A DNA stretch of 64,000 bases from Nitrospirota bacterium (GCA_029261215.1 JAJDBT010000096.1:2366-66365); one strand, 5' to 3'. Shown: positions 10,854 to 31,361, numbered from the stretch's first letter. Numbers and translations: made by a program. The notes: a model not told the origin generated them from the letters alone.

Positions 10854-10900
10854 CTACACATCCTTGAAATACAATGTCTTTTAAAGGAACACACAGATCA

Positions 10901-13177: not shown

Positions 13178-13464
13178 ATGATGCTCGTTGTTGAGGAAAT
13201 ATTATTCAAAGCGGCCCATTCCAAAATCTTCCTGCCCCAGACAAAAACCACTGATGTCGTTTTGAAGTGATCTTAAGCGCTCTTTAAATGTCACCGCGCT
13301 CGAAATGCTTAACTCAGTCCTTTTCGTAAAAGCGGTCATGCTTCTATCGATATAAAAATGGTATCAAGCCTATAGGGCCTGGCACGGATTCCGTGTAAAA
13401 CGGCATGCAGATCAATGAACGATTTATGCGAAATGCTTCAAATGAGGAGAGATTCATCTTTTTC

Positions 13465-14013
13465 TCATCTTATCGCAGATGATTTGTCCTCATGTTGATA
13501 TTTCGTTTTTGTAATAATGTTTTCGATATCTAAAATGGTCACCAGCTGGCCTTGGCGCATAAATTCCCCCTTCAAATAGTGTGCTCTTTCTGTAGAAAGT
13601 GTACTCAAGGGTGGATCAATCTGATGATTCGCGACATCAAGCACTTGAGAGACCTCATCGACCAATAAGCCGGTCTCAACTTTTTTCTCGGAAATCACAA
13701 CAATGCGCGTTTTCCCACTATGCGGAACCCACTCTAAACCAAAAAGATTTTTAGGATCCGTGACAGAAATAATTTCTCCTCGAAGGTTTGTGATCCCTGC
13801 AATATAGGCTGGTGCGCCAGGAAGGATGGTGAGTTGAGAGGCTGGAATGACTTCAATGATTTTATGAATTTCTGCGGCATACCATTCATTACTGATTCTG
13901 AAACAAACCACTTGAATACCGACCTCTTTCGTTTTGTACGCTTTTTCATAAAAATCAATATCTTCACTCAAAATGGCCGGATCATGACTTTCTGTGGTGT
14001 CTTCTATACTCAT
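13465..14013 (-). CDS. cheW: CheW coupling protein (second copy)
   Basis: CheW-like domain VVCFRISNEWYAAEIHKIIEV...GITNLRGEIISVTD. It is the first gene of the che operon on the minus strand. Confidence 0.85.
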   Translation of the reverse strand: MSIEDTTESHDPAILSEDIDFYEKAYKTKEVGIQVVCFRISNEWYAAEIHKIIEVIPASQLTILPGAPAYIAGITNLRGEIISVTDPKNLFGLEWVPHSGKTRIVVISEKKVETGLLVDEVSQVLDVANHQIDPPLSTLSTERAHYLKGEFMRQGQLVTILDIENIITKTKYQHEDKSSAIR

Positions 14014-14254
14014 CTGTTTTTAAAAACCTTTTCCCTAATCATGATCGACTTTAAATACCAGGTTTTTTAATAAATCAACCACATCCATTCCCGCGAACAA
14101 CCTGAGCAAAACGTATATTTTAACCCTGCGTCTAAAGGACGTTCCAAACTCAAATATATCAGATCCTTTTTGCTTGTCACTTATTTGCGGTCAGGTTTTT
14201 TCCAGTGTGCCATTCTGAACAATCGATTATCCAGACATCAAACAGATCGTGCTT

Positions 14255-14851
14255 TCAATCCTCAATCTCAGGTCTTTCCACTTCCTTTTCTTTTTCGTGC
14301 TGTGCGAGTAAAATCTGACGTTCCCTTTTGATCACATAACGAAAGATCGTTTCTTGGTCCAAGACTTTTACGTTCGTAAATTCAACGCCTAAGTCAAACT
14401 TTGCAGGAAGAGACTTGTGGCTCTCTTTTTGTCTTGACCGGCAAACAACTCCATCGATCACCATCTCATTAAATGGCAATACAGGCAGGAAAAATCTCAC
14501 CTGGATTTTTGAACCCAGGGCCATCTGTTCATGGCTGGAAAACCTCGCCCCGCTTGCACTCAAATCGACCACCTCAGCTTCATAAGGGAATTCCGGGGCA
14601 TCCTTATCCTTTATCAGTGTTTTAATGAGATAATTCACTTTCCAATCCAGCCAGAGCAACAGTTCCAGGTGCAGTTTGTCATTCTCATTGCCCGCCGCCC
14701 GAATTTTTGTTGCAATATCAGAGATTTCATTTGAAGAAATCGGATCATAGCGCTCTGGCATTAAGTGGGTATTCGCTGCATTATCTACGATTCTAAATGA
14801 GACCATACATTCTGCACTCACCCTTACAAACTTTCTGCGCTCTTCACTCAC
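14255..14851 (-). CDS. PilZ domain c-di-GMP receptor
   Basis: The N-terminal RRKFVR (RxxxR) motif and DLSASGARF (D/NxSxxG) motif are both present. Confidence 0.8.
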   Translation of the reverse strand: MSEERRKFVRVSAECMVSFRIVDNAANTHLMPERYDPISSNEISDIATKIRAAGNENDKLHLELLLWLDWKVNYLIKTLIKDKDAPEFPYEAEVVDLSASGARFSSHEQMALGSKIQVRFFLPVLPFNEMVIDGVVCRSRQKESHKSLPAKFDLGVEFTNVKVLDQETIFRYVIKRERQILLAQHEKEKEVERPEIED

Positions 14852-14906
14852 TTCCGCCTCCTGGTAAAAATCATTAAACCGAGAAATGCTGACTTAAACG
14901 AAACAT

Positions 14907-16430
14907 CTACCCAACCCGCCGTTCCCCTAAAATCAAAACATCAGGTTTTCTGGAAATGGATTCCTCTTCTTTGGCGCTTACAATACAGTTTCTTCCCGTT
15001 TTTTTTGCGCGATAAAGCGCTTGATCTGCTGCGTTAAAAAGGCATTCGGGGGTTTGAATATCGGATGAAGGATAATGGGCGATTCCGATGCTTACGGTTA
15101 TCGGGATCTCTAAATCGTCCGTACAGATTTTTTTTCGCTCAACTTTCTTTTTAATTCGATTTGCAACGATTAATCCTTCCTCCAGGTTTGTTCCTGGAAG
15201 AATCACGACAAATTCTTCTCCGCCATATCGTATTAAAACATCAATATCTCTAATACTTGACTTGAAGATAGAAGCCGTTTCGCAGAGAACCTGATCCCCG
15301 GTCAGATGCCCATAGGTATCATTCACTTTTTTAAAATGATCAAGGTCAATGACCATGATCGTGAGCGACGTATTGTAGCGATTTGCCCTTCTAAATTCCC
15401 TTTCCAATATTCCTGAAAATGACCTTCGATTTAAAATGTCTGTCAAAGGATCCTTAATGGATAAATCCTCCACCTGTTTGTACATTTCAGCATTTCGAAT
15501 GGAAATCGCTAAAGGCACTGAAATCATAGACAACAACTTCGCCTGGTATTCGCTAAATGATCCATAGGATTTTCTAGGGCTTACGGTGACACGGGTGATG
15601 GTATTTTCACTGTGCCGATAAGACATTCGCATCAAGCGTAACAATCCGATTTTACTTGCTCCCACCGAGAGCAAGACCATAATTTCAGAACCACCGTGGC
15701 AAACAGTCGCCTGTGGAACTGTCGAATGATTTTCAATCAATTTCAGAGCGTCTTCCCGGGTTTCATCTTTCACTTGTTCAAGAATATCTCCCCACACCTT
15801 CAGATCCGCTTCAACGCGGACCTGATCCCAGCCCTTCAGGTAAAGACAAGAAATATCGTGAGGCACCACTTTTTGAATATTTGTAAACAAGGACTTTACA
15901 ATCTCCTCAATATGAAGGGATTCACTGAGTGTCTGGTTCAGCTCGTATAAGGCACTCAAGTCCGTGTTCCATTTTTTGAGTTGATCACGCTCCCCGGAAA
16001 GGGATTGATTCGCTTCTTCCAGCTGACTTGATAGATTCAAAATATTAAGCAGGTTTTCACGATTTTTAAGACCTTTTCGCATTGTTTTTAACAAGCGATG
16101 ATACGGAAAAGGCGTCTTCAGATAATCAAAAACACCTCCTCGTAAAAGCGCACTGACTTTCCCTGAATCAAGTTCAGGCCCCATCATCAGGACACAGGCC
16201 GTCGATTGTGCTTGCTGAAGCAGTTTAAGAAATTTAAAAATTCTGAAATAAGGGAAATTGGCCTCAATTAAAACGATGTCAGACTTTTCAAAATAGATCA
16301 GTGATTGATTGATCCTGATCCGGTCTCCTCTTTTTTTAAAAAATGCCTTTAATTCATCGTGATTGTTCGGGTTCATGCTATAAAAAGCGATTTCTATTCC
16401 TTTAGGACGATTCAACTGAACCTGTTTCAT
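14907..16430 (-). CDS. Diguanylate cyclase: degenerate receiver, GAF-like region, GGDEF domain
   Basis: RYGGEEFVVILPG active site with an RDID I-site (RxxD) exactly 5 residues upstream. The N-terminal receiver-like fold has Glu at the acceptor position (DIVLIEANFP). I start at ATG 16430, preceded by GGGAG; the track's GTG 16442 lies inside that Shine-Dalgarno. Confidence 0.85.
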   Translation of the reverse strand: MKQVQLNRPKGIEIAFYSMNPNNHDELKAFFKKRGDRIRINQSLIYFEKSDIVLIEANFPYFRIFKFLKLLQQAQSTACVLMMGPELDSGKVSALLRGGVFDYLKTPFPYHRLLKTMRKGLKNRENLLNILNLSSQLEEANQSLSGERDQLKKWNTDLSALYELNQTLSESLHIEEIVKSLFTNIQKVVPHDISCLYLKGWDQVRVEADLKVWGDILEQVKDETREDALKLIENHSTVPQATVCHGGSEIMVLLSVGASKIGLLRLMRMSYRHSENTITRVTVSPRKSYGSFSEYQAKLLSMISVPLAISIRNAEMYKQVEDLSIKDPLTDILNRRSFSGILEREFRRANRYNTSLTIMVIDLDHFKKVNDTYGHLTGDQVLCETASIFKSSIRDIDVLIRYGGEEFVVILPGTNLEEGLIVANRIKKKVERKKICTDDLEIPITVSIGIAHYPSSDIQTPECLFNAADQALYRAKKTGRNCIVSAKEEESISRKPDVLILGERRVG

Positions 16431-16549
16431 AATATCTCCCACTGAATCAATGTCTGCTCACAGTCTGTTTTTTTTCGAGTGTTCATTTAAGATGAAAATG
16501 GATTGAGAAGAATATTGGAGTATAAATAGAATCATAGTTTAGTAAAGTA

Positions 16550-17708: not shown

Positions 17709-18617
17709 TTGCAAAAAGCTTCTTTTAAATGTACGCCAGACTTCACCAAACAGATTCTTCAAGGTGAGATCCGCGCCACCTCCAGACTGCTTACCCTGAT
17801 AGAACAAAGAAACCCTCTCGCCCTCCCCTGTCTAAAAGACTTATATCCTCATACAGGCCATGCAAGACTCATCGGCATTACCGGGCCCGCCGGTACGGGA
17901 AAAAGCACCCTGATCAATCGCTTGATCACAAGCTTCCGAAAAAAGAGAAAAAAAATTGGCGTTCTGGCCGTGGACCCGACCAGTCCATTTTCAGGTGGCG
18001 CCATTTTGGGGGATCGACTCAGAATGCATCCTCATTTTCTAGACAGAGACGTTTTTATCCGAAGCCTCGCAACGCAAGGAAGTCTGGGAGGAATCAGCCC
18101 TGCACTTTTTGACGCCATTCATGTCCTTGATGCGATGGGGAAAGACATCATTTTCATTGAAACAATCGGTGTTGGGCAAGATGAAGTCTATATTGCCAAT
18201 CTAGCAGAAACCCTCCTGCTTGTCTTAACACCAGGCATGGGAGATATCGTTCAAACAATGAAATCGGGTTTACTTGAGATTGGCGACATCATCGTAGTCA
18301 ACAAGGGAGACCTCCTGGATGGATTTCAATTGATACAAGAGTTAGAAGAAATAAGAGGGAAGCGCCCCGTTATGCAAGTTTCAGCAGAAAAGGAAACAGG
18401 GATAAAAGATCTTATTTCTAAATTAGAAGGCAGGATGAATAAAAAGCGGGATGTTTACTCTAAAAAAGAAACCTTTGTACGAGAAGAACTGCAATGGCTC
18501 CTTTATGAAAAACGCCTTGCGGACAGAACGGGGTTTCCATTTAAAGATAGTGTTATCAAACAAATTCTACGCCGAGAAGTGACGCCCTATGACACGGTCG
18601 AAGATTGGAGTGAATAA
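17709..18617 (+). CDS. meaB: MeaB/ArgK-type G3E GTPase
   Basis: P-loop GITGPAGTGKSTLI, plus AVDPTSPFSGGAILGDRLRM, ETIGVGQDE and VVNKGD motifs. TTG start per the ORF track. Confidence 0.85.
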   Translation: MQKASFKCTPDFTKQILQGEIRATSRLLTLIEQRNPLALPCLKDLYPHTGHARLIGITGPAGTGKSTLINRLITSFRKKRKKIGVLAVDPTSPFSGGAILGDRLRMHPHFLDRDVFIRSLATQGSLGGISPALFDAIHVLDAMGKDIIFIETIGVGQDEVYIANLAETLLLVLTPGMGDIVQTMKSGLLEIGDIIVVNKGDLLDGFQLIQELEEIRGKRPVMQVSAEKETGIKDLISKLEGRMNKKRDVYSKKETFVREELQWLLYEKRLADRTGFPFKDSVIKQILRREVTPYDTVEDWSE

Positions 18618-18618
18618 A

Positions 18619-19206
18619 CTAGGCTTTTTTCTTTAGTTCCATAATGACCAGCTTGGCAACATCTTTCAGCGTTTCAAAAACGCCCTCGCCTTTTGCTGCA
18701 GATGCTTCGAAAGAAGGGACTTTTCGTGGATTTAAAGCTTCTTCCATTTCTTTTAAGGGGACAACATTGGCGAGATCCCGTTTGTTGTACTGAACAACAT
18801 AGGGCAGCTCTTCCAAATTAAAACCATGGTCGTTTAAATTTTTCACCAGGTTGTCCATACTTTCCAAATTTGCTTCCATACGCTCAACTTGAGAGTCTGC
18901 AACAAAAATAACACCATCGACACCCCTCAAGATGAGTTTTCTACTGGCATCGTAAAATATCTGGCCAGGAACAGTGTAAAGGTGAAATCGAACCTTAAAA
19001 CCTTTAATGCTACCCAATGCCAAGGGAAGAAAATCGAAAAAAAGTGTCCGCTCAGATTCCGTTGCGAGCGAGATCATTTTTCCTTTACTATCTGGATTAA
19101 TTTTTTTGTAGATATATTGCAGGTTTGAGGTTTTTCCACAAAGGCCAGGACCGTAATACACAATTTTGCAGCTAATTTCACGGGCAGAGTAATTTATAAA
19201 AGACAT
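18619..19206 (-). CDS. mglA: Ras-like GTPase MglA
   Basis: [33 protein letters not shown] and the MglA-specific switch [33 protein letters not shown], plus NKRDL. Confidence 0.92.
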
Positions 19207-19291
19207 TATTTATACCTTTAGAGAAATCGTCGATTCATTACAATGATTCAACTGGCAGGAAACAAAGCATAAAAGAAGCAAACCCCAAATT

Positions 19292-19783
19292 TCAACCAAA
19301 CAGGCTTTCAATATCTTCTTCAGTAATTTCTTTAAATGGAGATCCAGCAACCTGATTCGCATCGGTCTTTGTCATTTTTTCAGTTAACTTATCAAAAACC
19401 TCTGTCAGGGCAGCGACACTCCGTTTTACTCTTAATCGAATAAGACCCAGGGAAGAGCGATCATCAAAAACGACAACGAGAATTGCACGATGCCCCACCA
19501 AGGAGATATGAATATTGTCGCGTTCTCCCTCATGAAACAAGATCGAAAACTCTTTTTCACCCAAGAGCTGCGCCATTCCTCCCGTCGCAGCAATATTCCC
19601 GGCGGTTAAAGAGGCAAGAGAAGTCGTATCGATATCGCCGGTTTCTCCAATACTCGCAATTAATTGTCCGTCTTTATCAACCAAAAAGGATACTTTGGCT
19701 CGGGAAAGCTGATTAAGCTTAAGCAACTCTTTATCAATCAGCCTTGACTCTTCTTCAAATAACACTAAGCCGGGATTTAACAT
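19292..19783 (-). CDS. mglB: Roadblock/LC7 protein MglB (MglA GAP)
   Basis: Roadblock-fold signature VSFLVDKDGQLIASIGETGDIDTTSLASLTAGNIAATGGMA, positioned immediately upstream of mglA. Confidence 0.85.
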   Translation of the reverse strand: MLNPGLVLFEEESRLIDKELLKLNQLSRAKVSFLVDKDGQLIASIGETGDIDTTSLASLTAGNIAATGGMAQLLGEKEFSILFHEGERDNIHISLVGHRAILVVVFDDRSSLGLIRLRVKRSVAALTEVFDKLTEKMTKTDANQVAGSPFKEITEEDIESLFG

Positions 19784-20456: not shown

Positions 20457-21143
20457 TTAAACCAACATCGGCGTCTTAAGTGTTTCGGCCCACTCTGCTC
20501 CCAAGTCATAAACGCGTCTGATCGTATCCATGTTTTTCTTTAAGAGCTGCGCTTTTTTTGCAAACTTTTTCTTGATGGCTTCATCAAGCGTTGCAGTTCC
20601 ACCCGATGCAACATATTTCTTCCCAAAACGATCTTCAATTGCAAGTTCCATCGCATCAAGGCCAACAATTTTTGTCGCACCCATTAAAGCGCCCAACATC
20701 CCCATATTGGTCGCAAGTTCTGTCCCCGCAATCTCTACAGCCAATGTTGTCGCCGGAATATAAAAAATGGGAATATTTTGCTCTTCAAGAAAGCGAATAT
20801 CGTCTTTCTCAAGCGGAAGCGGCTCATCAGAGTTGATAATTAAAAGCCCACCTGGCTTGATCCCCTCATAAAAAGGCATCGTATAGCACTTCCCCATCGT
20901 AATCACTTGAGGATGAAAAACCATGATGACATCAGGATAGACCAGTTCTCCTCGGTCATAGATCTTCTCTTCGGCCATTCTCACATAACTTTCTGCGGGG
21001 GCCATCCTTTTTTCAGCTCCAAAAAAGGGATTTGAAATAGCAAACTTTCCTTCTTTAGATGCTGCTGTCGCCAAGACATGTGCAGATGTCACAACACCTT
21101 GACCTCCGAGTCCGGACATCCTCAAATTAACACGCTTCCTCAT
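20457..21143 (-). CDS. 2-oxoacid:ferredoxin oxidoreductase gamma subunit
   Basis: The N-terminal GLGGQGVVTSAHVLA motif is typical of POR/KOR gamma subunits. Confidence 0.85.
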   Translation of the reverse strand: MRKRVNLRMSGLGGQGVVTSAHVLATAASKEGKFAISNPFFGAEKRMAPAESYVRMAEEKIYDRGELVYPDVIMVFHPQVITMGKCYTMPFYEGIKPGGLLIINSDEPLPLEKDDIRFLEEQNIPIFYIPATTLAVEIAGTELATNMGMLGALMGATKIVGLDAMELAIEDRFGKKYVASGGTATLDEAIKKKFAKKAQLLKKNMDTIRRVYDLGAEWAETLKTPMLV

Positions 21144-21193
21144 TTAAAACTCCTTACGTTTAAAAGTTGACCATCCTGCCAGGATTCCAAGTT

Positions 21194-22078
21194 TCAGGCA
21201 GTAATTGCCTTTTTCTTCTTTTTCTTTGGATCTATGGTTTCAAGATACGCTTTCGCCTCTTCAGAAATGTATTCCTCAAACTCAAACCGCTTATTGGGTC
21301 CTTCTGAGTCCCTCATTTCCTGAAGCCCTTCCATCATCTGCTTTCCAATTTCCAAAATACAAGGAGTATAGAGCTGGATGTAAGTCGGGCCAACCTCTCT
21401 TGCGATCAAGATGGCCTGGCGAATCGCTTTTTCAACACGGTTCGGCTTGCTTACTGTCATTTTTGCGACATAGTGACAACCTGAAACTTTTGCAATTTCA
21501 GGAAGATTCACTTTATCAAACTTTTTACCGGCAGGTGCCATTTTGGCGACAAAGCCTTTCTGCATCAGGCCGCTTGATTGTCCTCCTGTATTGGCATAAA
21601 GCTCATTATCAAAACAGATAGTTGTGAATTTTTCTTGACGGAACCAGGATTGAAGGGTCATATCCAGACCAATATCCACTGTCGCACCATCTCCTGCCAA
21701 AACAACGACGTCTTTCACCTTATCCGGGAAACGATAAGAAAGTGCTCGCTTCAAACCAGAAGCCACGGCGTTCTGATTTCCAAAAAGCGAATGAATATTG
21801 TGGACTGCAACATGAGGAAATACAAGGCTGGTGCACCCTGTAGAGCCGACCATGATCGTATCTTCAGGTGCAGGCAGACAGGCAAGTACGTATCTGAAGG
21901 CAATTGACTCAGGGCAGCCCGCACAAAGAGAATGTTCCTCAATTAACTCCTTGGATTCTCCTACGTCCTTCCAGCCTCGATCTTCCTTACCATAAGTTCC
22001 TTCTTCAACCAGTTCTTGATACTCCACCGGCATAATATCGTAAAACTCTGGGTTGATCTTTATTTTTTCCTTACCCAT
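21194..22078 (-). CDS. 2-oxoacid:ferredoxin oxidoreductase beta (TPP-binding) subunit
   Basis: CAGCPE, GSTGC and the TPP motif LAGDGATVDIGL...NELYANTGGQ. I start at ATG 22078 (MGKEKIK), which overlaps the alpha-subunit stop by 8 nt. Confidence 0.88.
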   Translation of the reverse strand: MGKEKIKINPEFYDIMPVEYQELVEEGTYGKEDRGWKDVGESKELIEEHSLCAGCPESIAFRYVLACLPAPEDTIMVGSTGCTSLVFPHVAVHNIHSLFGNQNAVASGLKRALSYRFPDKVKDVVVLAGDGATVDIGLDMTLQSWFRQEKFTTICFDNELYANTGGQSSGLMQKGFVAKMAPAGKKFDKVNLPEIAKVSGCHYVAKMTVSKPNRVEKAIRQAILIAREVGPTYIQLYTPCILEIGKQMMEGLQEMRDSEGPNKRFEFEEYISEEAKAYLETIDPKKKKKKAITA

Positions 22079-23270
22079 GGACAGTCTCCTTTTTCTTTGC
22101 AAGTACTTTTTTAATTTCTGTGACAATCACTTCAGGAGGCATGGTCATTCCACCTGCCACATGAGGACCCGCAATCACGCGATGATTATCCGGAATTGTA
22201 GACTTGATTTCACGTGCCATCCAACCTGCAACATTAAATTCAGGCACAAAGATGATTTTTGCATTTTTTGTTGCCTGACGAACTTCCTCATATGGAAACG
22301 GTCGAATCGTCTTAATCTTCACAATGCCCACTTTAATCCCCTCTTCAGCCAGAAGACGCTTTGCTTCTCGTCCCTGGGCTACTGCTGTTCCTGAAGAAAC
22401 AATGAGTATTTCAGCATCCGAATTATCCTCTTCGATCAAGCCTCCCAAAAGCCGAATTGTGTGTTTTCTCGATCGCTCACAAGCGGCACGCGTCTCTTGC
22501 TGCCAACTCGCTTGTGTTGCATAACTAATATAGTTACTTTTCATCACAAAAGGATCCCGCATCATACGGACAGGGGGAGATTCCATATCCATGGCAGGCA
22601 TTGGGTTACGGTAAGGATTATAAGGGGGAATAACAAAGTCAGCCGATGGAATCAAGACATCATCCTTTGTGTGGCTCACAAAAAACCCGTCGATACAAAC
22701 TGCAATCGGCAGATGAACATCTGGCTCTTCAGCCACCAAAAATCCTTTGAGGAGAAAATCAAAAAATTCTTGCGCAGATTCAGCATGCCAGATCAACATC
22801 CCGGTATCAATGATCAAGCCAATTTCCAAAGTATCCGGCTGGATACTTAATGGAGAGTTCACACCCCGAACCATCATATTCAACATGATTGGAAGCCTGG
22901 AACCGACCCACATCGGAAAGTTTTCATAAGCCCTGAGTGTTCCTGGCCCTGAGGTTGTCGTAAAAACACGAGCACCCCCAAAGGAAGCGCCAGCGCACTC
23001 AGACATCACTGCGAATTCATTTTCTCCACGAAAATATTCGCCAACATAACCCTCCACATAGAGATCCCCGACCATTGCAGCGGCTTCACTCTGAGGGGTG
23101 ATCGGATATGCGATCGATACATCGACATTCGCCCGTTTAATCGCTTCACGAACAACTTCACTTCCTGTCATAAAGTGACGTTCCCTCGGCGCTTCGAAAA
23201 AAAGATAGTCCGGGTCAACAATTTTTTGACCCTTTTTATTATATGTGCCAATCAGAGATTTTGAATCCAT
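22071..23270 (-). CDS. 2-oxoacid:ferredoxin oxidoreductase alpha subunit
   Basis: MTGSEVVREAIKRANVDVSIAYPITPQSE and TTTSGPG motifs are typical of POR/KOR alpha subunits. Confidence 0.88.
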   Translation of the reverse strand: MDSKSLIGTYNKKGQKIVDPDYLFFEAPRERHFMTGSEVVREAIKRANVDVSIAYPITPQSEAAAMVGDLYVEGYVGEYFRGENEFAVMSECAGASFGGARVFTTTSGPGTLRAYENFPMWVGSRLPIMLNMMVRGVNSPLSIQPDTLEIGLIIDTGMLIWHAESAQEFFDFLLKGFLVAEEPDVHLPIAVCIDGFFVSHTKDDVLIPSADFVIPPYNPYRNPMPAMDMESPPVRMMRDPFVMKSNYISYATQASWQQETRAACERSRKHTIRLLGGLIEEDNSDAEILIVSSGTAVAQGREAKRLLAEEGIKVGIVKIKTIRPFPYEEVRQATKNAKIIFVPEFNVAGWMAREIKSTIPDNHRVIAGPHVAGGMTMPPEVIVTEIKKVLAKKKETVHG

Positions 23271-23328
23271 CTCTTACCTCCTCAGTTATCAAATAATTGA
23301 TAATACAATCAAAAAATTCTACCTTTAT

Positions 23329-23922
23329 CTAAAAATCGCCAGAAGCCTTCACCCGCCTGACTGTTTCGGTCAATCTATTAATTTTATCCGGAGAAGCATC
23401 ACGAAAAGTCAGCATCGCATCTTCGTGTCCTGCCTGAGCACACATCGCGATGGTGTAACAGTCCGTTCCCCCACGAATAATTTTCAATGAAAGGTTTGCC
23501 ATATGGCAATGCACCCCAACAAACATACAGACATCTATTTTGTTATGCCATATTGTGAGATTAGGATGGTTCGGGTTAATTTCGATCGCAGGATTAATTT
23601 TTGGGTATTTCGGGCGATAATCAGGCATAGGGATATGGAGTGCGCCGGGGTTATGGGCCTTTAAAACATCATATAATGCCTTGATTGCCACTGCCTTTTT
23701 TGCAGCATTTTCATTCCAATTCCATAAAACAAGCGGCCCTGGAAATAGTGTGGGCACCTTTGCCGTGAGAAACTGCCTCGCCGCTGCTTCCATTACGAGA
23801 TCCTCATGAACAATCTCACCATGAATCAAACCTTGGCCCGGATCAGGAAGAACAACGCCCTCACAAGCTGCAGCAGGTGGTAAAAATGCTTCCGGACCTT
23901 TCATAACACTGTATTTTGACAT
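23329..23922 (-). CDS. Probable fifth subunit of a five-subunit-type 2-oxoacid:ferredoxin oxidoreductase
   Basis: A 197-aa ORF that is first in the operon, 58 nt upstream of alpha. The assignment rests on position and size compared with my recollection of five-subunit enzymes of Hydrogenobacter. I see no catalytic motif. Confidence 0.5.
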   Translation of the reverse strand: MSKYSVMKGPEAFLPPAAACEGVVLPDPGQGLIHGEIVHEDLVMEAAARQFLTAKVPTLFPGPLVLWNWNENAAKKAVAIKALYDVLKAHNPGALHIPMPDYRPKYPKINPAIEINPNHPNLTIWHNKIDVCMFVGVHCHMANLSLKIIRGGTDCYTIAMCAQAGHEDAMLTFRDASPDKINRLTETVRRVKASGDF

Positions 23923-25170: not shown

Positions 25171-25259
25171 TGGTGCCGAAGGCCGGAATCGAACCGGCAC
25201 GCTCCTTGCGGTGCGAGGGATTTTAAGTCCCTTGCGTCTACCAATTCCGCCACTCCGGC
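25171..25259 (-). tRNA. tRNA-Leu (anticodon UAA)
   Basis: Folded by hand. Acceptor GCCGGAG/CTTCGGC has one G-U pair. Anticodon stem AGGGA/TCCCT with loop CTTAAAA. The variable arm is long. T-arm is GCCGG-TTCGATT-CCGGC and a CCA is encoded. Confidence 0.9.
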
Positions 25260-25404: not shown

Positions 25405-25779
25405 CTATCGATTTATTTGTGGGATCAAAATCATGCCCCAAGTAAACAGGACATTCAATATCGCAAACATCACAGCCGCCGACCCAGCATCTTTTGCTTT
25501 TTTGGATAAGGGGTGCTGTTCTGTCCCGATACGATCAACTGCGGCTTCAATGGCTGTGTTGAGAAACTCGACGATTAAAACCATCAACAAGCTTCCGATC
25601 ATCAACACAATTTCAGTCGGGGTCTGTCCCAGCCAAAAAGCCAAGGGCAAACAAACCGCAAGAAGCACCAATTCCTGACGGAAAGCCGCTTCATCGCAAT
25701 ATGTTGCTTTTAATCCGGAAAGAGACCACTTGATCGCATGAATGAAATGATTTATCCCGCTTTTTTTTTGATTTTCCAT
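25405..25779 (-). CDS. dgkA: Diacylglycerol kinase (prokaryotic DgkA type)
   Basis: A 124-aa protein with three TM segments. AAFRQELV and EFLNTAIEAAVDRIG motifs. Confidence 0.88.
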   Translation of the reverse strand: MENQKKSGINHFIHAIKWSLSGLKATYCDEAAFRQELVLLAVCLPLAFWLGQTPTEIVLMIGSLLMVLIVEFLNTAIEAAVDRIGTEQHPLSKKAKDAGSAAVMFAILNVLFTWGMILIPQINR

Positions 25780-25807
25780 GCGACGCCTTACCCTGAATGA
25801 CTCGTAT

Positions 25808-28627
25808 TTACCCTAATAAAACTTCTTCAATATGGCTCGCAATGGATAAGCGGACGGCATCTCGAAGCCGGACGACTTCACGCCATTCCTTCCCCTCCGG
25901 TTGGATCGCCGCACAGTAAGTCATCGAAACGGGCGTCCGTGCAGGCAGCCATTCACCATCTCTTAGAAATTCACGTGTTCCTTTAAGCACAACCGGAACA
26001 AGCGGCCTTCCTGTTTCGACCGAAACCTTGAATGCACCCAGTTTAAAAAGTCTCAAGCCCGCTGTGGCACGAAAAGTCCCTTCCGGAAAGATCAGCACCG
26101 ACCCTCCTCCATTTAAACAGGACTCGATTTTTTCGGTCTCGGAGCGGCCCGATGCGACATTTTGACGATCTACGGTAATATGTTGCCCTTTTCTTAAAAA
26201 GGTCTTTAGAACCGGAACTTTTAACAACTCCTGCTTTGCGACAAAATGCACCCCTGCCGGAAGACTCGAAATAAGAAAAATGACATCAAGATAGCTCGCA
26301 TGGTTCGCAATCCAGATCACAGGCATTTTTTCATGAACAGGCTCAATCCCCTTGACGCCCTGAATCATCGGGGTTGCACCCGCCAAGCTCAAAAACAAGC
26401 GCGCGCCTTTTTTGAGAAAAACCCCAGTCATTTTTGAGGGGGTTATCAGCACAAAAAACCAGAGCGGAATGATGATCATAATGAGGAGGACGGCAAGATA
26501 AGCCGCGTACAACAGACGGCACGCTTTTGAAAATCCACGGGCACCCCAGAGTCTGATCCAGGTCACAAAAAGACTGAACACCTGAAACGAAACACGCTGA
26601 GGCCGTTTCAAGAGTTCCCCTTTTAAATAGGATGCCCGGCAGGCAGACCTTGCAATCTTTCCGCTTGATGTTTTTAGCACACTCCCAGGCGGAACGAGAC
26701 ATAGGAGGTCTGCCGGCAGACCAATCGTATCAACAATACGTTTATTAATGGCGGCGCTTAAAGCAGTTTTCTCCATGTCAGATGTTTTACGGGTCTCGAT
26801 CACGACCACTAATTTTTCGGTGCCAAGCCCTTCATCCGGAATACCAAATGCCGCGATACAGCCTTTTCTAACCCCCTGAACCTCTGCAACAACCCCTTCA
26901 ATTTCATGGGGATGAAGGTTTCGGCCTCCTTTAATAATCAAATCTTTCTGTCGGCCGGAAATAAACAGTTCACCATCAGCGATATAACCCAAGTCACCAG
27001 AAACAAGCCAATCTCCATGAAATAGAGAAGCGGTCATTTCCATATTTCGATAATAGCCTGAAGTACAGGAAGGACCTCTAAATTCAATATGCCCCTCCAC
27101 CCGCTCCCCCAGCACAACACCTGTTTCATCTACAATTCTGATTTCATGCTCAGGAAGCGCCATCCCGCACGAGACAAATTCCAGAGCATTTAAATCAGAC
27201 GGTTTTGCTGGAAAAGCTTCCCGTTTTTTCTGAAATCGTTCCCGCATAATTTTATCCGTTCGCGGGGGACGATCCAGCGGCGGGAAAGCAAGGCCCACCG
27301 ATGCTTCGGCCATGCCATAAACCGGGAGATGCGTCTCAGGGCGAAAACCATAAGGGGCAAAACGTTTGGTAAAGCGTCTCAGTGTTTCCGGGTTAATCGG
27401 CTCGGCCCCATTTAAGGCAATGCGCCAAGCGCTTAAATCCAGGCCTTCAAGGACATCATCACGCAGTTTTTTTGAACAGATTTCATAGGCAAAGTTGGGT
27501 GCGGCCGAGAGCGTTCCCCCATATCGATGGAGTGTCCACAACCATTTTTCAGGCCGACTGAGAAAACTCATCGGAGAAAGAATGGCGATGGGTATCCCAT
27601 GAACCATACAAAAAAGCCAGGAGCCGATTAAGCCCATATCATGATAAAGCGGAAGCCAGCTCACACCCACATCCTCGGGAGAAATACGCATCGCCTTTTT
27701 CATGCACCGGATGTTGGCCAACAGGTTTTCGTGCGTCAAATAAACGCCTTTTGGATGGCCTGTACTACCTGAAGTATATTGGATCAGGCCTCCGTCTTTT
27801 TCTCCGATTAAACCCGGCCCAGCATGTTTGTCCCGCCCCAAAGCCGCCAGGGTTTCAGGAATAAGCACAGCCCGTAAACGAGGAAGTCGAGGCCTTAATA
27901 ATTTCGCCAGTTTTTCAACTTTTTGAAAAGTGATGAGATAAACGGCTTCGGCATTTTTCAAAATATGTTCCTGCCGTTGGGCATACACTTCTATTTCATT
28001 GGGCTTGAAGGGCGGATAAACCGGAACCGGGATACCTCCGGCCAAAAGCACGCCCAAAAATGTATAGAAAAAATCTTTTCCCGTTGGGAGCATCATCGCG
28101 ACAGTCTCGCCACGCTTGAGTCCTTTTTCATGTAAACCATTTGCAATTGCGGAAGCGCCAGTGAGCAGGTTTTTATACGTCAAGACGTCTTCTGTTTCCT
28201 GATTCGAGGCCAGATAAATGTGAGCTCTGTCTGGATCCGCTTCGACATGTCTAAGCAATGCCTCGGTCAGGGTTCGCGCCGGACGAATAATCTGCGCTGC
28301 GCCGGTTTTTAAAATGGGAGTACGCGGCTCAATGCGTTTTTTTTCTGATGAACCCACACGAAGAAGAATCGCGGCCAGTTCCGCGGGTGTTTCAGCTTCT
28401 GCAATGGTTGTATCGGGAAGAACGACTGAAAAGTGTGATTCGATGCGAATTAAAAGCTCAACACGTTCAAGGCTCCCAAGCCCCAAATCGCGCTCGAATG
28501 AGGCGCTCGCGGAAAGAAGGCCGACCTCACGATGTGCGCCGTTTTCGATCAAAAGCTGCCGAACAAGCGCCAGCACCTCCTCCTCAACATGGGTTTGATC
28601 CGTTTGGGTCGCTTTTAAAACAGACAT
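25808..28627 (-). CDS. Tri-domain fusion: carrier (PP-binding) domain, fatty acyl-AMP ligase/acyl-ACP-synthetase-like domain, TM segments, lysophospholipid acyltransferase (PlsC/AGPAT)
   Basis: Carrier motif DLGLGSLERVELL. Adenylation motifs YTSGSTGHPKGV, SGDLGYIADGELFISGRQKDLIIKGGRN and KTSSGKI. Hydrophobic stretch LLYAAYLAVLLIMIIIPLWFFVLI. Acyltransferase motifs NHASYLD (HX4D), FPEGT and VPVV. Confidence 0.85.
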   Translation of the reverse strand: MSVLKATQTDQTHVEEEVLALVRQLLIENGAHREVGLLSASASFERDLGLGSLERVELLIRIESHFSVVLPDTTIAEAETPAELAAILLRVGSSEKKRIEPRTPILKTGAAQIIRPARTLTEALLRHVEADPDRAHIYLASNQETEDVLTYKNLLTGASAIANGLHEKGLKRGETVAMMLPTGKDFFYTFLGVLLAGGIPVPVYPPFKPNEIEVYAQRQEHILKNAEAVYLITFQKVEKLAKLLRPRLPRLRAVLIPETLAALGRDKHAGPGLIGEKDGGLIQYTSGSTGHPKGVYLTHENLLANIRCMKKAMRISPEDVGVSWLPLYHDMGLIGSWLFCMVHGIPIAILSPMSFLSRPEKWLWTLHRYGGTLSAAPNFAYEICSKKLRDDVLEGLDLSAWRIALNGAEPINPETLRRFTKRFAPYGFRPETHLPVYGMAEASVGLAFPPLDRPPRTDKIMRERFQKKREAFPAKPSDLNALEFVSCGMALPEHEIRIVDETGVVLGERVEGHIEFRGPSCTSGYYRNMEMTASLFHGDWLVSGDLGYIADGELFISGRQKDLIIKGGRNLHPHEIEGVVAEVQGVRKGCIAAFGIPDEGLGTEKLVVVIETRKTSDMEKTALSAAINKRIVDTIGLPADLLCLVPPGSVLKTSSGKIARSACRASYLKGELLKRPQRVSFQVFSLFVTWIRLWGARGFSKACRLLYAAYLAVLLIMIIIPLWFFVLITPSKMTGVFLKKGARLFLSLAGATPMIQGVKGIEPVHEKMPVIWIANHASYLDVIFLISSLPAGVHFVAKQELLKVPVLKTFLRKGQHITVDRQNVASGRSETEKIESCLNGGGSVLIFPEGTFRATAGLRLFKLGAFKVSVETGRPLVPVVLKGTREFLRDGEWLPARTPVSMTYCAAIQPEGKEWREVVRLRDAVRLSIASHIEEVLLG

Positions 28628-28997
28628 ACTTTCATTTCCAATTCAAAAATTCGGGTCATTCTATGCATCTCAACCGCGTATATCAAGTTCCCTCAAATGC
28701 AGGGATGTCTCCGCTTCCCCTACAATGAGATTCTCTTTAAAGATCTAGAGGAGAGTCCAGTCCTCTAAAAATTTAGTCACCCCTGTTCACGGTCATGACA
28801 CATTTGGGCATTTTCAAACTGAGGCGCGAGCAAAGCCCATCCTTTTCTAAATGACCCTAGGAAACCATATTTTATTGGATCAATTCCTGTAAAGAATACA
28901 AAGATCTCATGAAAAAGCCTCATTTTCCACGAAACCTGCATTGTTTTTGTTATACTGGGTTCACTGAACATCCCATCCTAAACTGACCGGATTCAAG

Positions 28998-30401
28998 ATG
29001 GCCTTCCTTTCAGAGTTGGTAAAGAAAAAGTGGCTATTCATCGGACTGCTTGTCGGTGCAGGCTTGCTCTCGGCTCCCACGCCCGAAGGCTTGACCCCGA
29101 TCGGTATGCGGGCACTCTCTTTAGTCGTTGTCGTTTTTATTTTTTTTGTTACAGAACCCATCCCCCTGCCCGGTGTTGCGCTTTTTATCGCCATTGCACA
29201 AGTTTTGCTCGGACTAGAGCAACCGACTATTGTGGCACAATCTTTTATGAGCGATTCAGTTTTTTTTATCATGGGCTCACTTATGATCGCCACGGCCCTG
29301 GTCAAACAAAACCTCGACAAGCGCATTGCCCTGGCGATTGTGACCGTGACGGGCCCCCGGGTTGATCGCATTATCCTTGGACTTGTGACATGCTCCGCGC
29401 TGCTTGCCTCCTTTATAGGCGAACATACCGTTGCGGCCATGTTGCTTCCCGTCGGGGCCGCCCTCATTAATTACACAAATCGAAACTGGAGAGAAATCAG
29501 AAATCTCTCAGTTTTGATTTTACTTTCAATTGCATATGGGGCGATGATTGCCGGCGCTGGCACGCCTTCCGGAGGCGCACGCAATGCCATTATGCTCGCC
29601 TACTGGAAAAAGCTTTTTGAAGTTAACATGACCTATTTCGAGTGGATGAAATTTGCCTACCCAATGCTCCTGCTTGAGATACCCATTATTTCGGCAATTC
29701 TCTACTACACATTTACACCCGAAACCAAAGATCTCTCCCATGCCGTCTCCGCACTGAAAGAAAAGGTCGCGGAATCGGGTCCCATCACTTCAAAAGAATG
29801 GCTCGCAATCGGAATTTTTATGATAACAGTGTTGATGTGGATGACAATTTCGGATACAATCGGCCTCGGCATCACTGCGTTAATTGGGGTTCTTCTTTTT
29901 TTAATCGCCGGTGTTGTCAAATGGGAAGACCTAAATAATAGTGTGAACTGGGGGACGATTTTAATTTATGGCGGGGCAATCTCACTGGGTATCATGATGA
30001 AACGAACAGGCGTGGCCGAATGGCTTTCTCATTCGTTTCTTGCGTGGGTTGCACCCTTTGGTATTCATAAAGGCCTTCCTCTTTTGGCAGCCATCAGTTT
30101 TTTAACAATGCTCATGGCCACATTTATGAGCAGCGGAGCCACTGTTGGCGTCCTGGGGCCGATCACACTCAACATTGCAAGTTTGTCCGGAACCTCGGTC
30201 ATTGCCGCTGGCTTTATCACCGTCATTTCTTCCTCTTTTTGTTTTCTGACGACCACCGCCTCTCCTGCCTGCAATATCATCTATGGCAGCGGCTACCTAA
30301 AAAAAATCGATTACCTCAAGGCTGGATGGAAACTCGCGATAATCTCCTTCATCCTCGTCCAGATCATCAGTATCGGGTATTGGCGTTTTTTAAGTATTTA
30401 G
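28998..30401 (+). CDS. SLC13/DASS-type (ArsB/NhaD superfamily) anion permease
   Basis: A 467-aa polytopic membrane protein with internally repeated hairpin-like segments (GAGTPSGGARN / SSGATVGVLGP). Substrate unknown. Confidence 0.65.
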   Translation: MAFLSELVKKKWLFIGLLVGAGLLSAPTPEGLTPIGMRALSLVVVVFIFFVTEPIPLPGVALFIAIAQVLLGLEQPTIVAQSFMSDSVFFIMGSLMIATALVKQNLDKRIALAIVTVTGPRVDRIILGLVTCSALLASFIGEHTVAAMLLPVGAALINYTNRNWREIRNLSVLILLSIAYGAMIAGAGTPSGGARNAIMLAYWKKLFEVNMTYFEWMKFAYPMLLLEIPIISAILYYTFTPETKDLSHAVSALKEKVAESGPITSKEWLAIGIFMITVLMWMTISDTIGLGITALIGVLLFLIAGVVKWEDLNNSVNWGTILIYGGAISLGIMMKRTGVAEWLSHSFLAWVAPFGIHKGLPLLAAISFLTMLMATFMSSGATVGVLGPITLNIASLSGTSVIAAGFITVISSSFCFLTTTASPACNIIYGSGYLKKIDYLKAGWKLAIISFILVQIISIGYWRFLSI

Positions 30402-30413
30402 GATGGTCCCGCG

Positions 30414-31361
30414 ATGAAAATATTAATGTGCACGGATGGTGAGGAATATGCGGAGTCAGCCATTCGATTTGGCGGGCGATTGGCGAAAGAAATGAGTGCA
30501 GAGATTAGTGTACTGCATGTTCGACCGCCTATTTCGCCAAGAAACCGTGTCCAGCTGACGACAGCCCGAAAAAAATTAGGAGAATGGAATCTGGAGATTC
30601 CAGGTGTTGATGCCCTGATTCGTGCCAAGGAGATCCTCACAGAAATTGGATTAACGAAGACAACACCCCTGGAAGAAGAGAAAGTCAGCCAGGCCTTTCG
30701 AATTGGCGTGCACGGGGCAACAGAGCTTCACTTGATCGGCCTAAAAGGGGAATTGGTTCGTCTCCGCCTGAGAGAAGGGCACCCCGTCGATGAAATCCTT
30801 GAAGAAACCGACGTAGGGGACTATGATCTGGTCATTGTCGGATCGCGAGGACATAAAGAATTTTCAACACGTTTTGTCGGCAGTACCGCACTTAGAGTCG
30901 CTGACCTTGCCGTTTGCAGTGTATTGATCGCAAAAAACATAAAAGAAGACGACGACTTTTTACTGTGTACAGACGGATCCCGACTTGCTGAAAAAGCAGA
31001 AATCACGGGTGCGGAGATGGCTCAAAAATTAAATGCAAGCATGACCATTCTGTCTATCGCCGAAGACGCAACCTTAGAAAAAGAAGAAGAAGCAAGACAG
31101 CTCACCCGGCGCGCAGAAATGATTTTGGCGCAAATGGGGATTAAGGCCAATCAAAAAGTACGTGTCGGCCGGCCTTCCGAAGAAATTATAGATGAAGCAA
31201 AGGACCACGATATTGTGGTAATGGGATCAAGCGGCAGCTCTGCCGTAAAAAAATTCTTTTTGGGAAGCACGCCACTAAGAGTGATTGAATATGGAGAATG
31301 CCCTGTGCTAATCGTTAGGGAAAAGCGCGGGAAAATATCATTACAGGAGACAACCTTATGA
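30414..31361 (+). CDS. Tandem universal stress protein (two UspA domains)
   Basis: Two repeats each end in the ATP-binding-type motif: DLVIVGSRGHKEFSTRFVGSTALRV and IVVMGSSGSSAVKKFFLGSTPLRVIEYGECPVLIV. Confidence 0.85.
   Translation: MKILMCTDGEEYAESAIRFGGRLAKEMSAEISVLHVRPPISPRNRVQLTTARKKLGEWNLEIPGVDALIRAKEILTEIGLTKTTPLEEEKVSQAFRIGVHGATELHLIGLKGELVRLRLREGHPVDEILEETDVGDYDLVIVGSRGHKEFSTRFVGSTALRVADLAVCSVLIAKNIKEDDDFLLCTDGSRLAEKAEITGAEMAQKLNASMTILSIAEDATLEKEEEARQLTRRAEMILAQMGIKANQKVRVGRPSEEIIDEAKDHDIVVMGSSGSSAVKKFFLGSTPLRVIEYGECPVLIVREKRGKISLQETTL

Follow-up and report, generated by a model that had tools for sequence, protein, structure and literature searches.

The locus examined here raises the question of what enzyme is encoded beside a dgkA-family gene in a Nitrospirota bacterium, and what that enzyme might do to membrane lipids. 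The window, a 64,000-nucleotide stretch of DNA (GCA_029261215.1 JAJDBT010000096.1:2366-66365), contains at positions 25405-28627 what the preliminary description had taken for a single polypeptide; a 939-aa ORF is indeed present, but the span takes in two genes rather than one. According to the ORF list and its translation, the larger gene occupies 25808..28627 (minus strand, as are all features given below) from its ATG start through the stop codon, and encodes, in order, a carrier domain, a fatty-acyl-AMP ligase (FAAL) domain, a membrane motif and an acyltransferase domain. It adjoins, as had been noticed, a dgkA-family gene of 124 aa at 25405..25779, from which it is separated by 28 nt. The 124-aa ORF matches Pfam DAGK_prokar over the whole profile (PF01219; 117.8 bits), a search with NCBIfam models gave no match to it, and its product is predicted to be a dgkA-family diacylglycerol (DAG) kinase or undecaprenol kinase. 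No terminator-like site was found in the 28-nt gap, and the two genes are probably co-transcribed; the limit of the two-gene unit is marked by a tRNA-Leu(UAA) directly 3' of dgkA (25171..25259; ARAGORN, Rfam tRNA 58.9 bits). A consensus scan of the region 5' of the start codon gave a sigma-70-like promoter candidate, TTGATA-17-TAGAAT (28658..28686; 10 of 12 matches), which is weak evidence because such sites are no more numerous in the region than shuffled expectation.

The N-terminal portion of the 939-aa protein (residues ~12-92; 28352..28594) was assigned as an acyl-carrier domain by Pfam, by solved ACP structures and by its AF2 model. Whether a segment with Gly rather than Asp ahead of the Ser would score as a PP-binding domain had been questioned at the outset; Pfam PP-binding (PF00550) matches residues 38-87 at 31.1 bits against a gathering cutoff of 20.8, solved ACP structures match the domain with a best E-value of 8.5e-8, and the AF2 model is a helical bundle (helices at residues 2-28, 52-66 and 81-90). 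The carrier motif DLGLGSLERVELL lies at residues 47-59. Within it, in the stretch LGLGSLERVEL, lies Ser52 (28472..28474, as confirmed by a codon check), the predicted site of 4'-phosphopantetheine attachment; in alignments to solved ACPs it coincides with the Ser of DLGLDSL that bears the phosphopantetheine, at the start of helix II. When 118 homologues of 47-76% identity were aligned, Ser52 was invariant (118/118), as was the SLERVEL helix. The acidic residue (Asp) or His that usually precedes the carrier Ser is absent, and Gly51 stands in this position in 113 of the 118; the conservation of this Gly suggests a trait of the family and not a sign of degeneration. Carrier-acyltransferase proteins that lack a FAAL domain retain an LGIGSLER motif, an argument for a carrier that works with the acyltransferase. 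We predict that the domain is functional and that Ser52 is phosphopantetheinylated; the scanned ORFs of the window included no identifiable phosphopantetheinyl transferase gene. The placement of a carrier N-terminal to a FAAL is an unusual order.

The adenylation domain (residues ~115-675, comprising N- and C-terminal subdomains; 26603..28285) was delimited by PDB matches, NCBIfam models and motifs, with Pfam AMP-binding matching residues 126-526 at 215 bits. The top PDB matches, by sequence and by fold, are all FAALs (3pbk, with a target TM-score of 0.91; 7r7e-g; 3kxw; FadD32). The best NCBIfam matches are likewise FAAL subfamilies, of which the top model, NF006624, gives 421.9 bits, under its cutoff of 600, these models describing particular stand-alone FAAL subfamilies. 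In 78 aligned homologues the core motifs of the ANL superfamily are invariant, namely A3 (T/SGSTGxPKG; T285-G294), A5 (YGxAE; G438/A440/E441), A7 (GD; D545), A8 (GRxKD; R559/K561/D562) and A10 (the catalytic Lys, K657).

Domain parsing bore out the FAAL-type assignment that had been made from motifs, since the protein has the insertion and the helix specific to FAALs as well as the residues that block CoA. The insertion region (residues ~443-490, following the YGMAE motif; 27158..27301) shows a gap-free alignment to its counterparts in the FAALs of E. coli and Legionella; with acyl-CoA ligases, by comparison, the HMMER alignments are interrupted between query residues 423 and 487, and alignment to 4CL in a single stretch requires ~36 extra query residues. 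Alignment to 3pbk with index mapping placed the FAAL-specific helix at residues 351-359 (SPMSFLSRP; 27551..27577), equivalent to R251-P259 of EcFAAL, and residues 352-357 are helical in the AF2 model. W324, M331, F379 and P326, which align to the pocket-blocking W224, M231, F279 and P226 of EcFAAL, are invariant. This helix and bulky residues that block the CoA pocket are among the FAAL criteria given in one survey (PMC8460268). On these sequence features the predicted assignment as a FAAL rather than an acyl-CoA ligase holds. The domain shares ~33% identity and target TM-scores of 0.90-0.91 with FAALs such as E. coli 3PBK, Legionella 3KXW, Synechococcus Ols 7R7E and mycobacterial FadD32, and has in common with stand-alone and didomain FAALs the insertion, the helix and the blocked CoA pocket. 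Known FAALs, however, feed PKS/NRPS carriers and usually stand in FAAL-ACP order, whereas here the carrier lies upstream and the recipient is of PlsC type.

Of the four parts first proposed for the polypeptide, the carrier, adenylation and acyltransferase domains were borne out, but the two hydrophobic segments did not stand as a separate part. The sole strongly hydrophobic segment lies at residues ~705-729, with a Kyte-Doolittle peak of 2.95 at 711-729, and it follows an amphipathic helix; together they form a two-helix membrane-association motif (residues ~679-748; 26384..26593) supported by hydropathy, by AF2 helices at 679-728 and 731-748 and by a fold match. When the model of residues 676-939 (pLDDT 94) was compared with the Thermotoga maritima PlsC structure (TmPlsC, 5kym), the target TM-score was 0.78, with 244 aligned columns for a target of 241 residues. 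Because the model spans the whole of T. maritima PlsC, the hydrophobic segment and the amphipathic helix before it correspond to the N-terminal motif of the PlsC fold, and therefore do not constitute a fourth independent module.

The catalytic domain proper (residues ~749-939; 25811..26383) was recognized as a PlsC/AGPAT fold by Pfam Acyltransferase (PF01553; residues 758-881, 99 bits) and by TmPlsC, the only PDB sequence match to this part of the protein (E 2e-17). The PlsC-type motifs on which the first assignment had relied are present, with NHASYLD at residues 775-781 (NH776xxxxD781) and FPEGT at 847-851 (FPE849GTF852), and FVAK798 lies between them. N775, H776, D781 and E849 are invariant in the 118 homologues, and K798, the equivalent of K105, is conserved. 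The likeness to T. maritima PlsC, an LPA acyltransferase, thus extends from the fold and its two-helix motif to HX4D, the K105 equivalent and the motif IV Pro. The two differ in motif III, where F852 aligns to TmPlsC R159, so that EGTR reads EGTF, and probably also in the acyl donor, which would here be supplied in cis. From sequence and model, the acyltransferase is predicted to be competent and membrane-bound.

The full-length AF2 model has a mean pLDDT of 87.5 and a pTM of 0.80. The invariance of Ser52, H776, D781 and E849 across the 118 homologues, and of the adenylation core motifs across 78, shows that the domain features are not due to chance. The architecture had been thought unusual; it belongs instead to a large family spread over several phyla. 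Among the best 150 of the 50%-identity representatives, 111 have the carrier-FAAL-acyltransferase order, and cultured Proteobacteria also carry full-length members of 40-44% identity (in Methylobacterium, Cupriavidus, Paraburkholderia, Sinorhizobium and Photobacterium), annotated only as 'AMP-binding protein'. Fusions of a FAAL with a lysophospholipid acyltransferase are mentioned in two surveys of FAALs (Patil et al. 2021, PMC8460268; FAALPred 2026, PMC12820801), which describe the same pairing of a FAAL with an LPLAT/AGPAT-like domain, fused or in context, with no assigned function. The fusions listed there are very probably members of the same family as the window protein; the passages concerned give no account of the N-terminal carrier, EGTF, the membrane motif, the genomic context or experiments. 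Our literature search on the carrier-FAAL-acyltransferase family found no biochemical characterisation. The concern that this might be a common, already characterised Aas subfamily was thus justified as to its being common, but not as to its being Aas or characterised.

In order to place the protein among known systems, it was compared with Aas and LplT-Aas fusions. It shares with them an ATP-dependent, fatty-acid-activating ANL domain and an HX4D acyltransferase on one membrane polypeptide and, in its predicted mechanism and role, passage of the acyl group through a phosphopantetheine thioester and the return of salvaged fatty acid to a lysolipid. E. coli Aas, a 2-acyl-GPE acyltransferase/acyl-ACP synthetase, relies on free ACP. 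The window protein, in contrast, has a fused carrier, and its adenylation domain is of the FAAL type, with insertion and helix, rather than the Aas type. The opposite domain order attributed to Aas was confirmed by profile positions, Aas profiles matching the acyltransferase N-terminally and the adenylation domain C-terminally, whereas the acyltransferase of the window protein is C-terminal. Scores to the Aas equivalogs are far below cutoff (NF006386, 179.8 bits against 1221; NF005959, 19.6 against 886), and an identification as Aas was rejected on both grounds, order and score.

Together these features point to what is probably a self-contained, membrane-anchored enzyme, independent of CoA, that would activate a fatty acid, tether it and transfer it in the re-acylation or remodelling of lipids. 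In such a mechanism, a free long-chain fatty acid would be adenylated by the FAAL domain with ATP and, as in other FAALs, would not be passed to CoA; the acyl group would then be loaded onto the phosphopantetheine borne by Ser52 in the protein's own N-terminal carrier, which would present it as a thioester to the PlsC-fold acyltransferase at the C-terminus. This last domain would be kept at the cytoplasmic side of the membrane by the two-helix motif, and there the HX4D dyad may O-acylate a membrane-embedded acceptor. The sequence of activation, tethering in cis and transfer, as originally suggested, explains the domains most economically, but its last part, transfer to a lysolipid, is unproven in a family that lacks the EGTR Arg. 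A lyso-glycerolipid, though perhaps not LPA, is the most probable acceptor. By analogy with Aas, the physiological role is most likely membrane-lipid re-acylation or remodelling, in which fatty acids released by turnover would be returned to membrane lipids by a single polypeptide that uses neither free ACP nor CoA.

The genomic context of relatives was consistent with self-sufficiency. No partner gene was conserved across 20 other loci, which argues that the fusion protein suffices by itself. A dgkA gene lies beside the family gene in four close Nitrospirota relatives (at least 59% identity) and is absent at 16 more distant loci; it is downstream only in the window and at loci L001, L006 and L007. 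The linkage is lineage-specific synteny, and the proposal that dgkA and the fusion form a self-contained lipid module does not extend to the family, although within this Nitrospirota lineage the paired dgkA would recycle diacylglycerol. Because dgkA is absent from distant members and no LplT-like flippase gene lies near the 939-aa gene, the salvage role rests on analogy. The context of the family gene is variable, and often accessory or plasmid-borne.

If the product were not a phospholipid, the enzyme might instead make a specialised acyl lipid in the manner of OlsA and SalA, two enzymes of the PlsC family, and the target of its O-acylation could be a lyso-aminolipid, a glycolipid or an intermediate of secondary metabolism. 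Several members have neighbours that would suit such a pathway: one distant member (L014) lies within an NRPS cluster, and the Burkholderiaceae members have a second AMP-binding (adenylating) gene directly upstream, so parts of the family may make specialised lipids. At another locus (L010), carrier-acyltransferase variants adjoin genes for ATP-grasp, aminotransferase and PLP enzymes. EGTF would suit an acceptor without a phosphomonoester, and FAALs typically channel fatty acids to dedicated pathways (PMC8460268). Most members, however, the window gene included, have no biosynthetic neighbours; lyso-ornithine-lipid O-acyltransferase models match the acyltransferase weakly, at 53 bits, far under the OlsA cutoff of 300; and the dgkA linkage in this Nitrospirota lineage points to glycerolipid metabolism. 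We regard a specialised product as rather unlikely for the enzyme.

A role as an alternative LPA acyltransferase that serves the de novo synthesis of phosphatidic acid is also unlikely; on that view the protein would be a PlsC paralogue that draws on ATP-activated free fatty acid rather than acyl-ACP or acyl-CoA. Its nearest structure and profile are those of LPA acyltransferases (5kym, and TIGR00530, AGP_acyltrn, at 98.9 bits), the K105 equivalent is conserved, and phosphatidic acid is also the product of dgkA. The EGTR Arg, however, has been proposed to bind the LPA phosphate (TmPlsC R159; PMC6688108), and at this position the 118 close homologues almost always have Phe. In 102 of the 104 50%-identity representatives with a detectable motif III, the residue is F, L, I, C, M or Y, and in none is it Arg. 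The replacement suggests that the acceptor may not be LPA; the TIGR00530 score, moreover, falls just under the cutoff of 102.95, and for these two reasons the acceptor is uncertain. A variable, often accessory or plasmid-borne context is also unlike that of an essential housekeeping gene.

Myxococcus xanthus ElbD (Q1DC43) likewise fuses adenylation, carrier and AGPAT-like domains; its adenylation and carrier domains are active in vitro, where loading of the carrier in cis was demonstrated, and this provides a precedent (PMC9131029, citing Lorenzen 2014). That the window protein is such an ether-lipid enzyme after loss of its reductase is very improbable. In favour of it, non-myxobacterial ElbD-like homologues mostly lack the FAR domain (PMC9131029), and DAG kinase genes lie beside some elbD homologues of sponge symbionts (preprint 10.64898/2026.06.23.733905). 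Against it, the literature bears out that ElbD carries a reductase, its order being reductase-A-T-AT and the protein soluble (PMC9426513, PMC9131029). Pfam detects no reductase in the window protein, which thus has no route to an alkyl chain; its carrier precedes the A domain, and a membrane motif lies between A and AT and would anchor it. No elbB/elbE-like HAD or epimerase genes of an elb operon were present among the scanned window ORFs, and no protein of ElbD length with an AGPAT domain occurred among the best 150 representatives. Judged by its sequence, the carrier-FAAL-acyltransferase protein is neither Aas nor ElbD, the latter being compared by published description.

A purely structural or regulatory carrier-like domain devoid of phosphopantetheine, with the FAAL loading free AcpP or passing acyl-AMP straight to the acyltransferase, would fit Gly51 in place of the canonical Asp, the modest PP-binding score, the atypical position ahead of the FAAL and the use of free ACP by E. 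coli Aas, but is highly unlikely, as the invariance of Ser52 and helix II at 47-76% identity would be hard to explain and the motif is retained in carrier-acyltransferase proteins that lack the FAAL.

Tentatively, the salvage enzyme favoured here may represent a distinct bacterial route from free fatty acids to membrane lipids that would bypass CoA, free AcpP and acyl-phosphate, in which the EGTF enzyme would act on a non-LPA acceptor (lyso-PE, lyso-PG, a lyso-cardiolipin-type lipid or a phosphate-free lipid) and might serve under stress or low oxygen. If this were true, many 'ElbD homologue' matches in metagenomes that are read as ether-lipid capacity could be carrier-FAAL-acyltransferase enzymes. 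In several lineages, Usp, Hsp20 and BON genes neighbour family members, a hint of deployment under stress or low oxygen.

The ORF list and its translation place the fusion gene at 25808..28627 on the minus strand (939 codons), and every motif quoted for it in the preliminary description is present in the product. Pfam assigned a PP-binding domain to residues 38-87 (31.1 bits, against a gathering cutoff of 20.8), an AMP-binding domain to residues 126-526 (215 bits) and an acyltransferase domain, PF01553, to residues 758-881 (99 bits). A dgkA-family ORF of 124 codons lies 28 nt downstream (25405..25779, minus strand; full-length DAGK_prokar match, 118 bits) and is directly followed by a tRNA-Leu(UAA) gene (25171..25259, minus strand; ARAGORN, and 58.9 bits in Rfam), which closes the two-gene unit. 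The earlier observation was confirmed in its ORFs, domains and motifs; the interpretation placed on it was supported in part only. A promoter scan returned a sigma-70-like site about 30 nt upstream of the fusion start codon, with promoter-like sites around the gene no more numerous than expected from shuffled sequence; terminator-like sites fell mostly within coding sequence, and an Rfam search for a riboswitch or leader RNA upstream of the gene gave none, the tRNA being the sole match.

The adenylation domain is of the fatty-acyl-AMP ligase (FAAL) type. Its best NCBIfam matches were FAAL subfamilies, all under the family-specific cutoffs, and its top sequence matches in the PDB were the Synechococcus olefin-synthase FAAL, the E. 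coli and Legionella FAALs, FadD23 and FadD32. An AF2 model of the whole protein (pLDDT 87.5, pTM 0.80) superimposed on the E. coli FAAL 3PBK with a target TM-score of 0.91, and the 26 best fold matches were FAALs without exception. The domain was judged by the criteria set out in Patil et al. 2021 (PMC8460268), with a residue-level alignment to 3PBK; the four residues which block the CoA pocket in that structure, W224, M231, F279 and P226, correspond to W324, M331, F379 and P326, all invariant in the family, and the FAAL-specific helix RTQDFAMRP has its counterpart in SPMSFLSRP (residues 351-359), modelled as a helix. The FAAL-specific insertion, whose presence the preliminary description had left open, was found; the region at about 443-490 aligned to FAALs free of gaps, whereas alignments to acyl-CoA ligases were interrupted in the stretch from residue 423 to residue 487. 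The core motifs of adenylation, the A10 lysine K657 among them, were likewise invariant in the family alignment.

At the N-terminus, residues 1-114 matched solved acyl carrier proteins (best E-value 8.5e-8), and Ser52 lined up with the Ser of their DLGLDSL motif; NCBIfam ACP models matched weakly, under their cutoffs. The Gly preceding this Ser had been regarded as a possible objection to a PP-binding domain, but the assignment stands given these structural matches and the family alignment: in 118 full-length homologues (47-76% identity), Ser52, Leu53, Glu57 and Leu58 were invariant and Gly51 was kept in 113. Ser52 is the predicted site of phosphopantetheinylation. Two shorter relatives, P0122 and P0145 (371-380 aa), consist of an LGIGSLER(V/A)EL carrier and an acyltransferase without an adenylation domain, which argues that the carrier serves the acyltransferase. 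Both also possess the membrane helix. The P0122 gene (6001-7143 of locus L010) lies beside alpha/beta-hydrolase, PALP, aminotransferase and ATP-grasp genes, a neighbourhood which may represent an amino-lipid-type pathway; the contig ends just past the gene.

In both fold and catalysis the acyltransferase resembles PlsC. The sole solved structure matched by sequence was T. maritima PlsC (5KYM, E 2e-17), and a separate model of residues 676-939 (pLDDT 94.1) spanned the entire PlsC chain (244 columns over the 241-residue target, target TM-score 0.78). Because the alignment covers the whole of PlsC, helices 679-728 and 731-748 are identified as its N-terminal two-helix membrane motif; the two hydrophobic segments noted earlier are this motif, part of the PlsC fold rather than an independent module, and only residues 705-729, approximately, are strongly hydrophobic. 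N775, H776, D781, E849 and K798, the equivalent of TmPlsC K105, are conserved. The Arg of the EGTR motif (TmPlsC R159) has been proposed to bind LPA's 3-phosphate (PMC6688108). The aligned residue here is F852; Phe occupies this position in nearly all close homologues, and among 50%-identity representatives with a detectable motif it was nearly always hydrophobic and never Arg. The TIGR00530 score, 98.9 bits, fell slightly below the cutoff of 102.95. The acceptor may therefore be one other than LPA.

The most economical reading of this architecture comprises three steps: the FAAL domain would adenylate a free fatty acid and be unable to use CoA; the acyl group would pass in cis to phosphopantetheine on Ser52 of the fused carrier; and the carrier would present it to the membrane-docked HX4D site for O-acylation of a lipid acceptor. 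We consider it reasonably probable that the enzyme works in this general manner, in glycerolipid salvage or remodelling.

Alternatively, the protein might serve a specialised pathway for a non-phospholipid lipid. The EGTF signature is in keeping with such a role, as are the few family loci with a biosynthetic context; in one of these (L014 6001-8826), the gene for the family member P0376 (36% identity) has an 8925-aa megasynthase on one side and a FAAL-ACP-C-A-PCP-TE NRPS on the other, and some branches of the family may thus work in secondary-metabolite lipidation. The gene context in the window itself lends the idea no support, and for the protein studied here we regard it as unlikely; a Pfam scan of about 30 of the larger ORFs in the 64-kb window detected no further lipid-synthesis genes. 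That the protein is simply a paralogue of the LPA acyltransferase of de novo synthesis is weakened by EGTF, and seems rather unlikely too. An ether-lipid role of the ElbD type is highly improbable, since the reductase is missing and the domain order differs, and a non-functional carrier domain, contradicted by the residue conservation, is scarcely credible.

The fusion is a distinct variant of the Aas/ElbD theme of activating a fatty acid and acylating a lipid; an N-terminal carrier in cis, a FAAL domain in the true sense and an acyltransferase with EGTF define it. Aas works with free ACP. Profile positions bore out its reverse order, with the synthetase C-terminal to the acyltransferase, and the fusion protein scored far below the equivalog cutoffs; the suspicion that it might belong to a common, already characterised Aas subfamily held as regards commonness, but the family is not Aas and no characterisation of it was found. 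ElbD, compared here by its published architecture only, is a soluble protein of the order reductase-A-T-AT (PMC9426513, PMC9131029). In the fusion the carrier precedes the A domain instead of following it, and there is a membrane motif as well, so that the protein is not simply an ElbD lacking the reductase. No ElbD-like protein occurred among the best 150 representatives of 50%-identity clusters; the acyltransferase region, used as a query by itself, yielded nothing but short proteins and fragments, and a contig scan gave only two close loci.

A search of 5.8 billion proteins yielded over 120 clusters that combine the three Pfam domains of the fusion, from Nitrospiria, Ca. Manganitrophaceae, Rokubacteria/Methylomirabilis and Myxococcota, named in the database just 'AMP-binding protein' or '1-acylglycerol-3-phosphate O-acyltransferase'. 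The carrier-FAAL-acyltransferase order was present in 108 of the best 150 50%-identity representatives, and in three more with a split FAAL hit; longer members differed solely in linker length. A tblastn comparison with plasmids recovered ten copies of full length, 37-44% identical at 95-99% coverage. Their hosts are cultured bacteria, which carry them on megaplasmids or chromids: Methylobacterium nodulans (WP_012631269.1), Cupriavidus, Burkholderia, Paraburkholderia, Sinorhizobium sojae and Photobacterium. Six relatives of 865-927 aa with an apparently novel C-terminal domain after carrier and FAAL (P0319, P0339, P0292, P0359, P0366 and P0386) were rejected as frameshift artefacts, because their tails are Arg/Pro/Gly/Ala-rich out-of-frame translations; such frameshifted calls come from high-GC assemblies and might be misread as a new domain.

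The protein is therefore a typical member of a large family which has been noted before and, as far as we could find, apparently never characterised; the fusion as such will not surprise specialists. Patil et al. 2021 (PMC8460268) list FAAL-like domains fused with lysophospholipid acyltransferases among unexplained architectures, and FAALPred 2026 (PMC12820801) places FAALs in the context of an LPLAT/AGPAT-like domain. A 2025 FAAL review makes no mention of FAAL-acyltransferase fusions, and full-text literature searches found no biochemical study of the family. 'ElbD homologue' hits occur in organisms without ether lipids (PMC11868695), and the fusion family may confound ElbD-based inference of ether-lipid capacity.

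Were the proposed mechanism correct, it would bear on how such BLAST hits are read as markers of ether-lipid potential in geolipid studies. Bacteria have three well-established routes for taking exogenous or recycled fatty acids into use: FadD (acyl-CoA), Aas/AasS (acyl-ACP) and FakAB-PlsX (acyl-phosphate). A widespread fusion with its own carrier would add one that bypasses both the CoA and AcpP pools, with consequences for membrane remodelling in slow-growing chemolithotrophs (Nitrospirota, Methylomirabilota ('Rokubacteria') and Ca. Manganitrophaceae) and for the efficacy of FASII inhibitors where fatty acids can be salvaged. Function is directly testable, because Cupriavidus, Paraburkholderia, Methylobacterium and Sinorhizobium, which can be cultured and manipulated genetically, have members of the family.

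The preliminary description had suggested that the fusion and dgkA form one module for lipid recycling or remodelling. The gene dgkA is the next one downstream of the fusion in loci L003 and L004, which are the window's own contigs, and in L001 (70% identity) and L006 (67%); in L007 (59%) the pair is separated by an ammonium-transporter gene. It was absent from all 16 more distant family loci, and universal linkage was rejected, dgkA adjoining only relatives of at least 59% identity. The pairing is thus a lineage-specific arrangement, which fits a lipid-recycling role without establishing one. Divergent from the fusion gene, on the plus strand (28998-31361), a DASS-family (Na_sulph_symp/CitMHS) transporter is encoded together with a tandem-domain universal stress protein (Usp). 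Both genes are syntenic with the fusion gene in each of the close relatives (L001, L003, L006, L007), and family members on Paraburkholderia and Cupriavidus plasmids have Usp genes nearby as well. No partner gene conserved across the family was found in the loci examined. Linkage to LplT was rejected, as the MFS genes near the family member in L012 and L015 match metabolite symporters instead.

Four of the five Burkholderiaceae loci examined have, directly upstream of the fusion gene, another AMP-binding gene that is separate from it (~550-700 aa; L018 5098-6756; L019 6197-7972; L021 ~5591-7735; L022 ~6058-7914), and in Cupriavidus sp. USMAHM13 this gene overlaps the fusion gene. Genes for Usp, Hsp20, BON, nitroreductase, FtsH and P-type ATPase proteins are nearby in the annotated loci; L017 (Burkholderia sp. 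JP2-270 plasmid p2) and L019 (the USMAHM13 plasmid) also contain acsA, PDH-like genes and an ACP. The L017-L019 neighbourhoods resemble the low-oxygen lxa locus of Burkholderia cenocepacia; membership of that locus was rejected, its published gene table including no such gene, and the resemblance is a lead only. Genes downstream of the copy on Methylobacterium nodulans pMNOD02 (L016 9827-11754) encode a hypothetical protein of 100 aa, a metallophosphoesterase and, annotated as 'CDP-archaeol synthase', a small protein which could be lipid-related; a 3-hydroxybutyrate dehydrogenase is also near this copy. In a gammaproteobacterial MAG (L012 8970-13253) PHA-related genes come after the family member; their products are a PhaR-like PHB_acc protein, a MaoC dehydratase and a PhaC synthase.

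Elsewhere in the window, a four-gene 2-oxoacid:ferredoxin oxidoreductase cluster (20457-23922, minus strand), encoding POR gamma, TPP-binding beta, POR_N alpha and an extra CO_dh/ACS-epsilon-like subunit, fits a Nitrospirota-type reductive TCA enzyme. This Nitrospira-type cluster and the nearest homologues that bear organism names both indicate that the window comes from a relative of the Nitrospirota. Adjacent genes at 17709-19783 encode a MeaB-like GTPase, a Ras/Arf-like small GTPase and a Roadblock/LC7 protein, the latter two forming an MglA/MglB-like pair. A chemotaxis-type signalling cluster (3770-16442) comprises a CheA-like hybrid kinase, CheB, CheW and CheR-TPR, with two DUF4388 proteins, a GAF protein and a GGDEF diguanylate cyclase, and an NAD-dependent DNA ligase is encoded at 1347-3473. 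An RND efflux pump (AcrB-like, 1040 aa) with its membrane-fusion protein (42238-46830) and an outer-membrane protein of the usher family with small ORFs next to it (54244-56586), both on the minus strand, are unrelated to the fusion.
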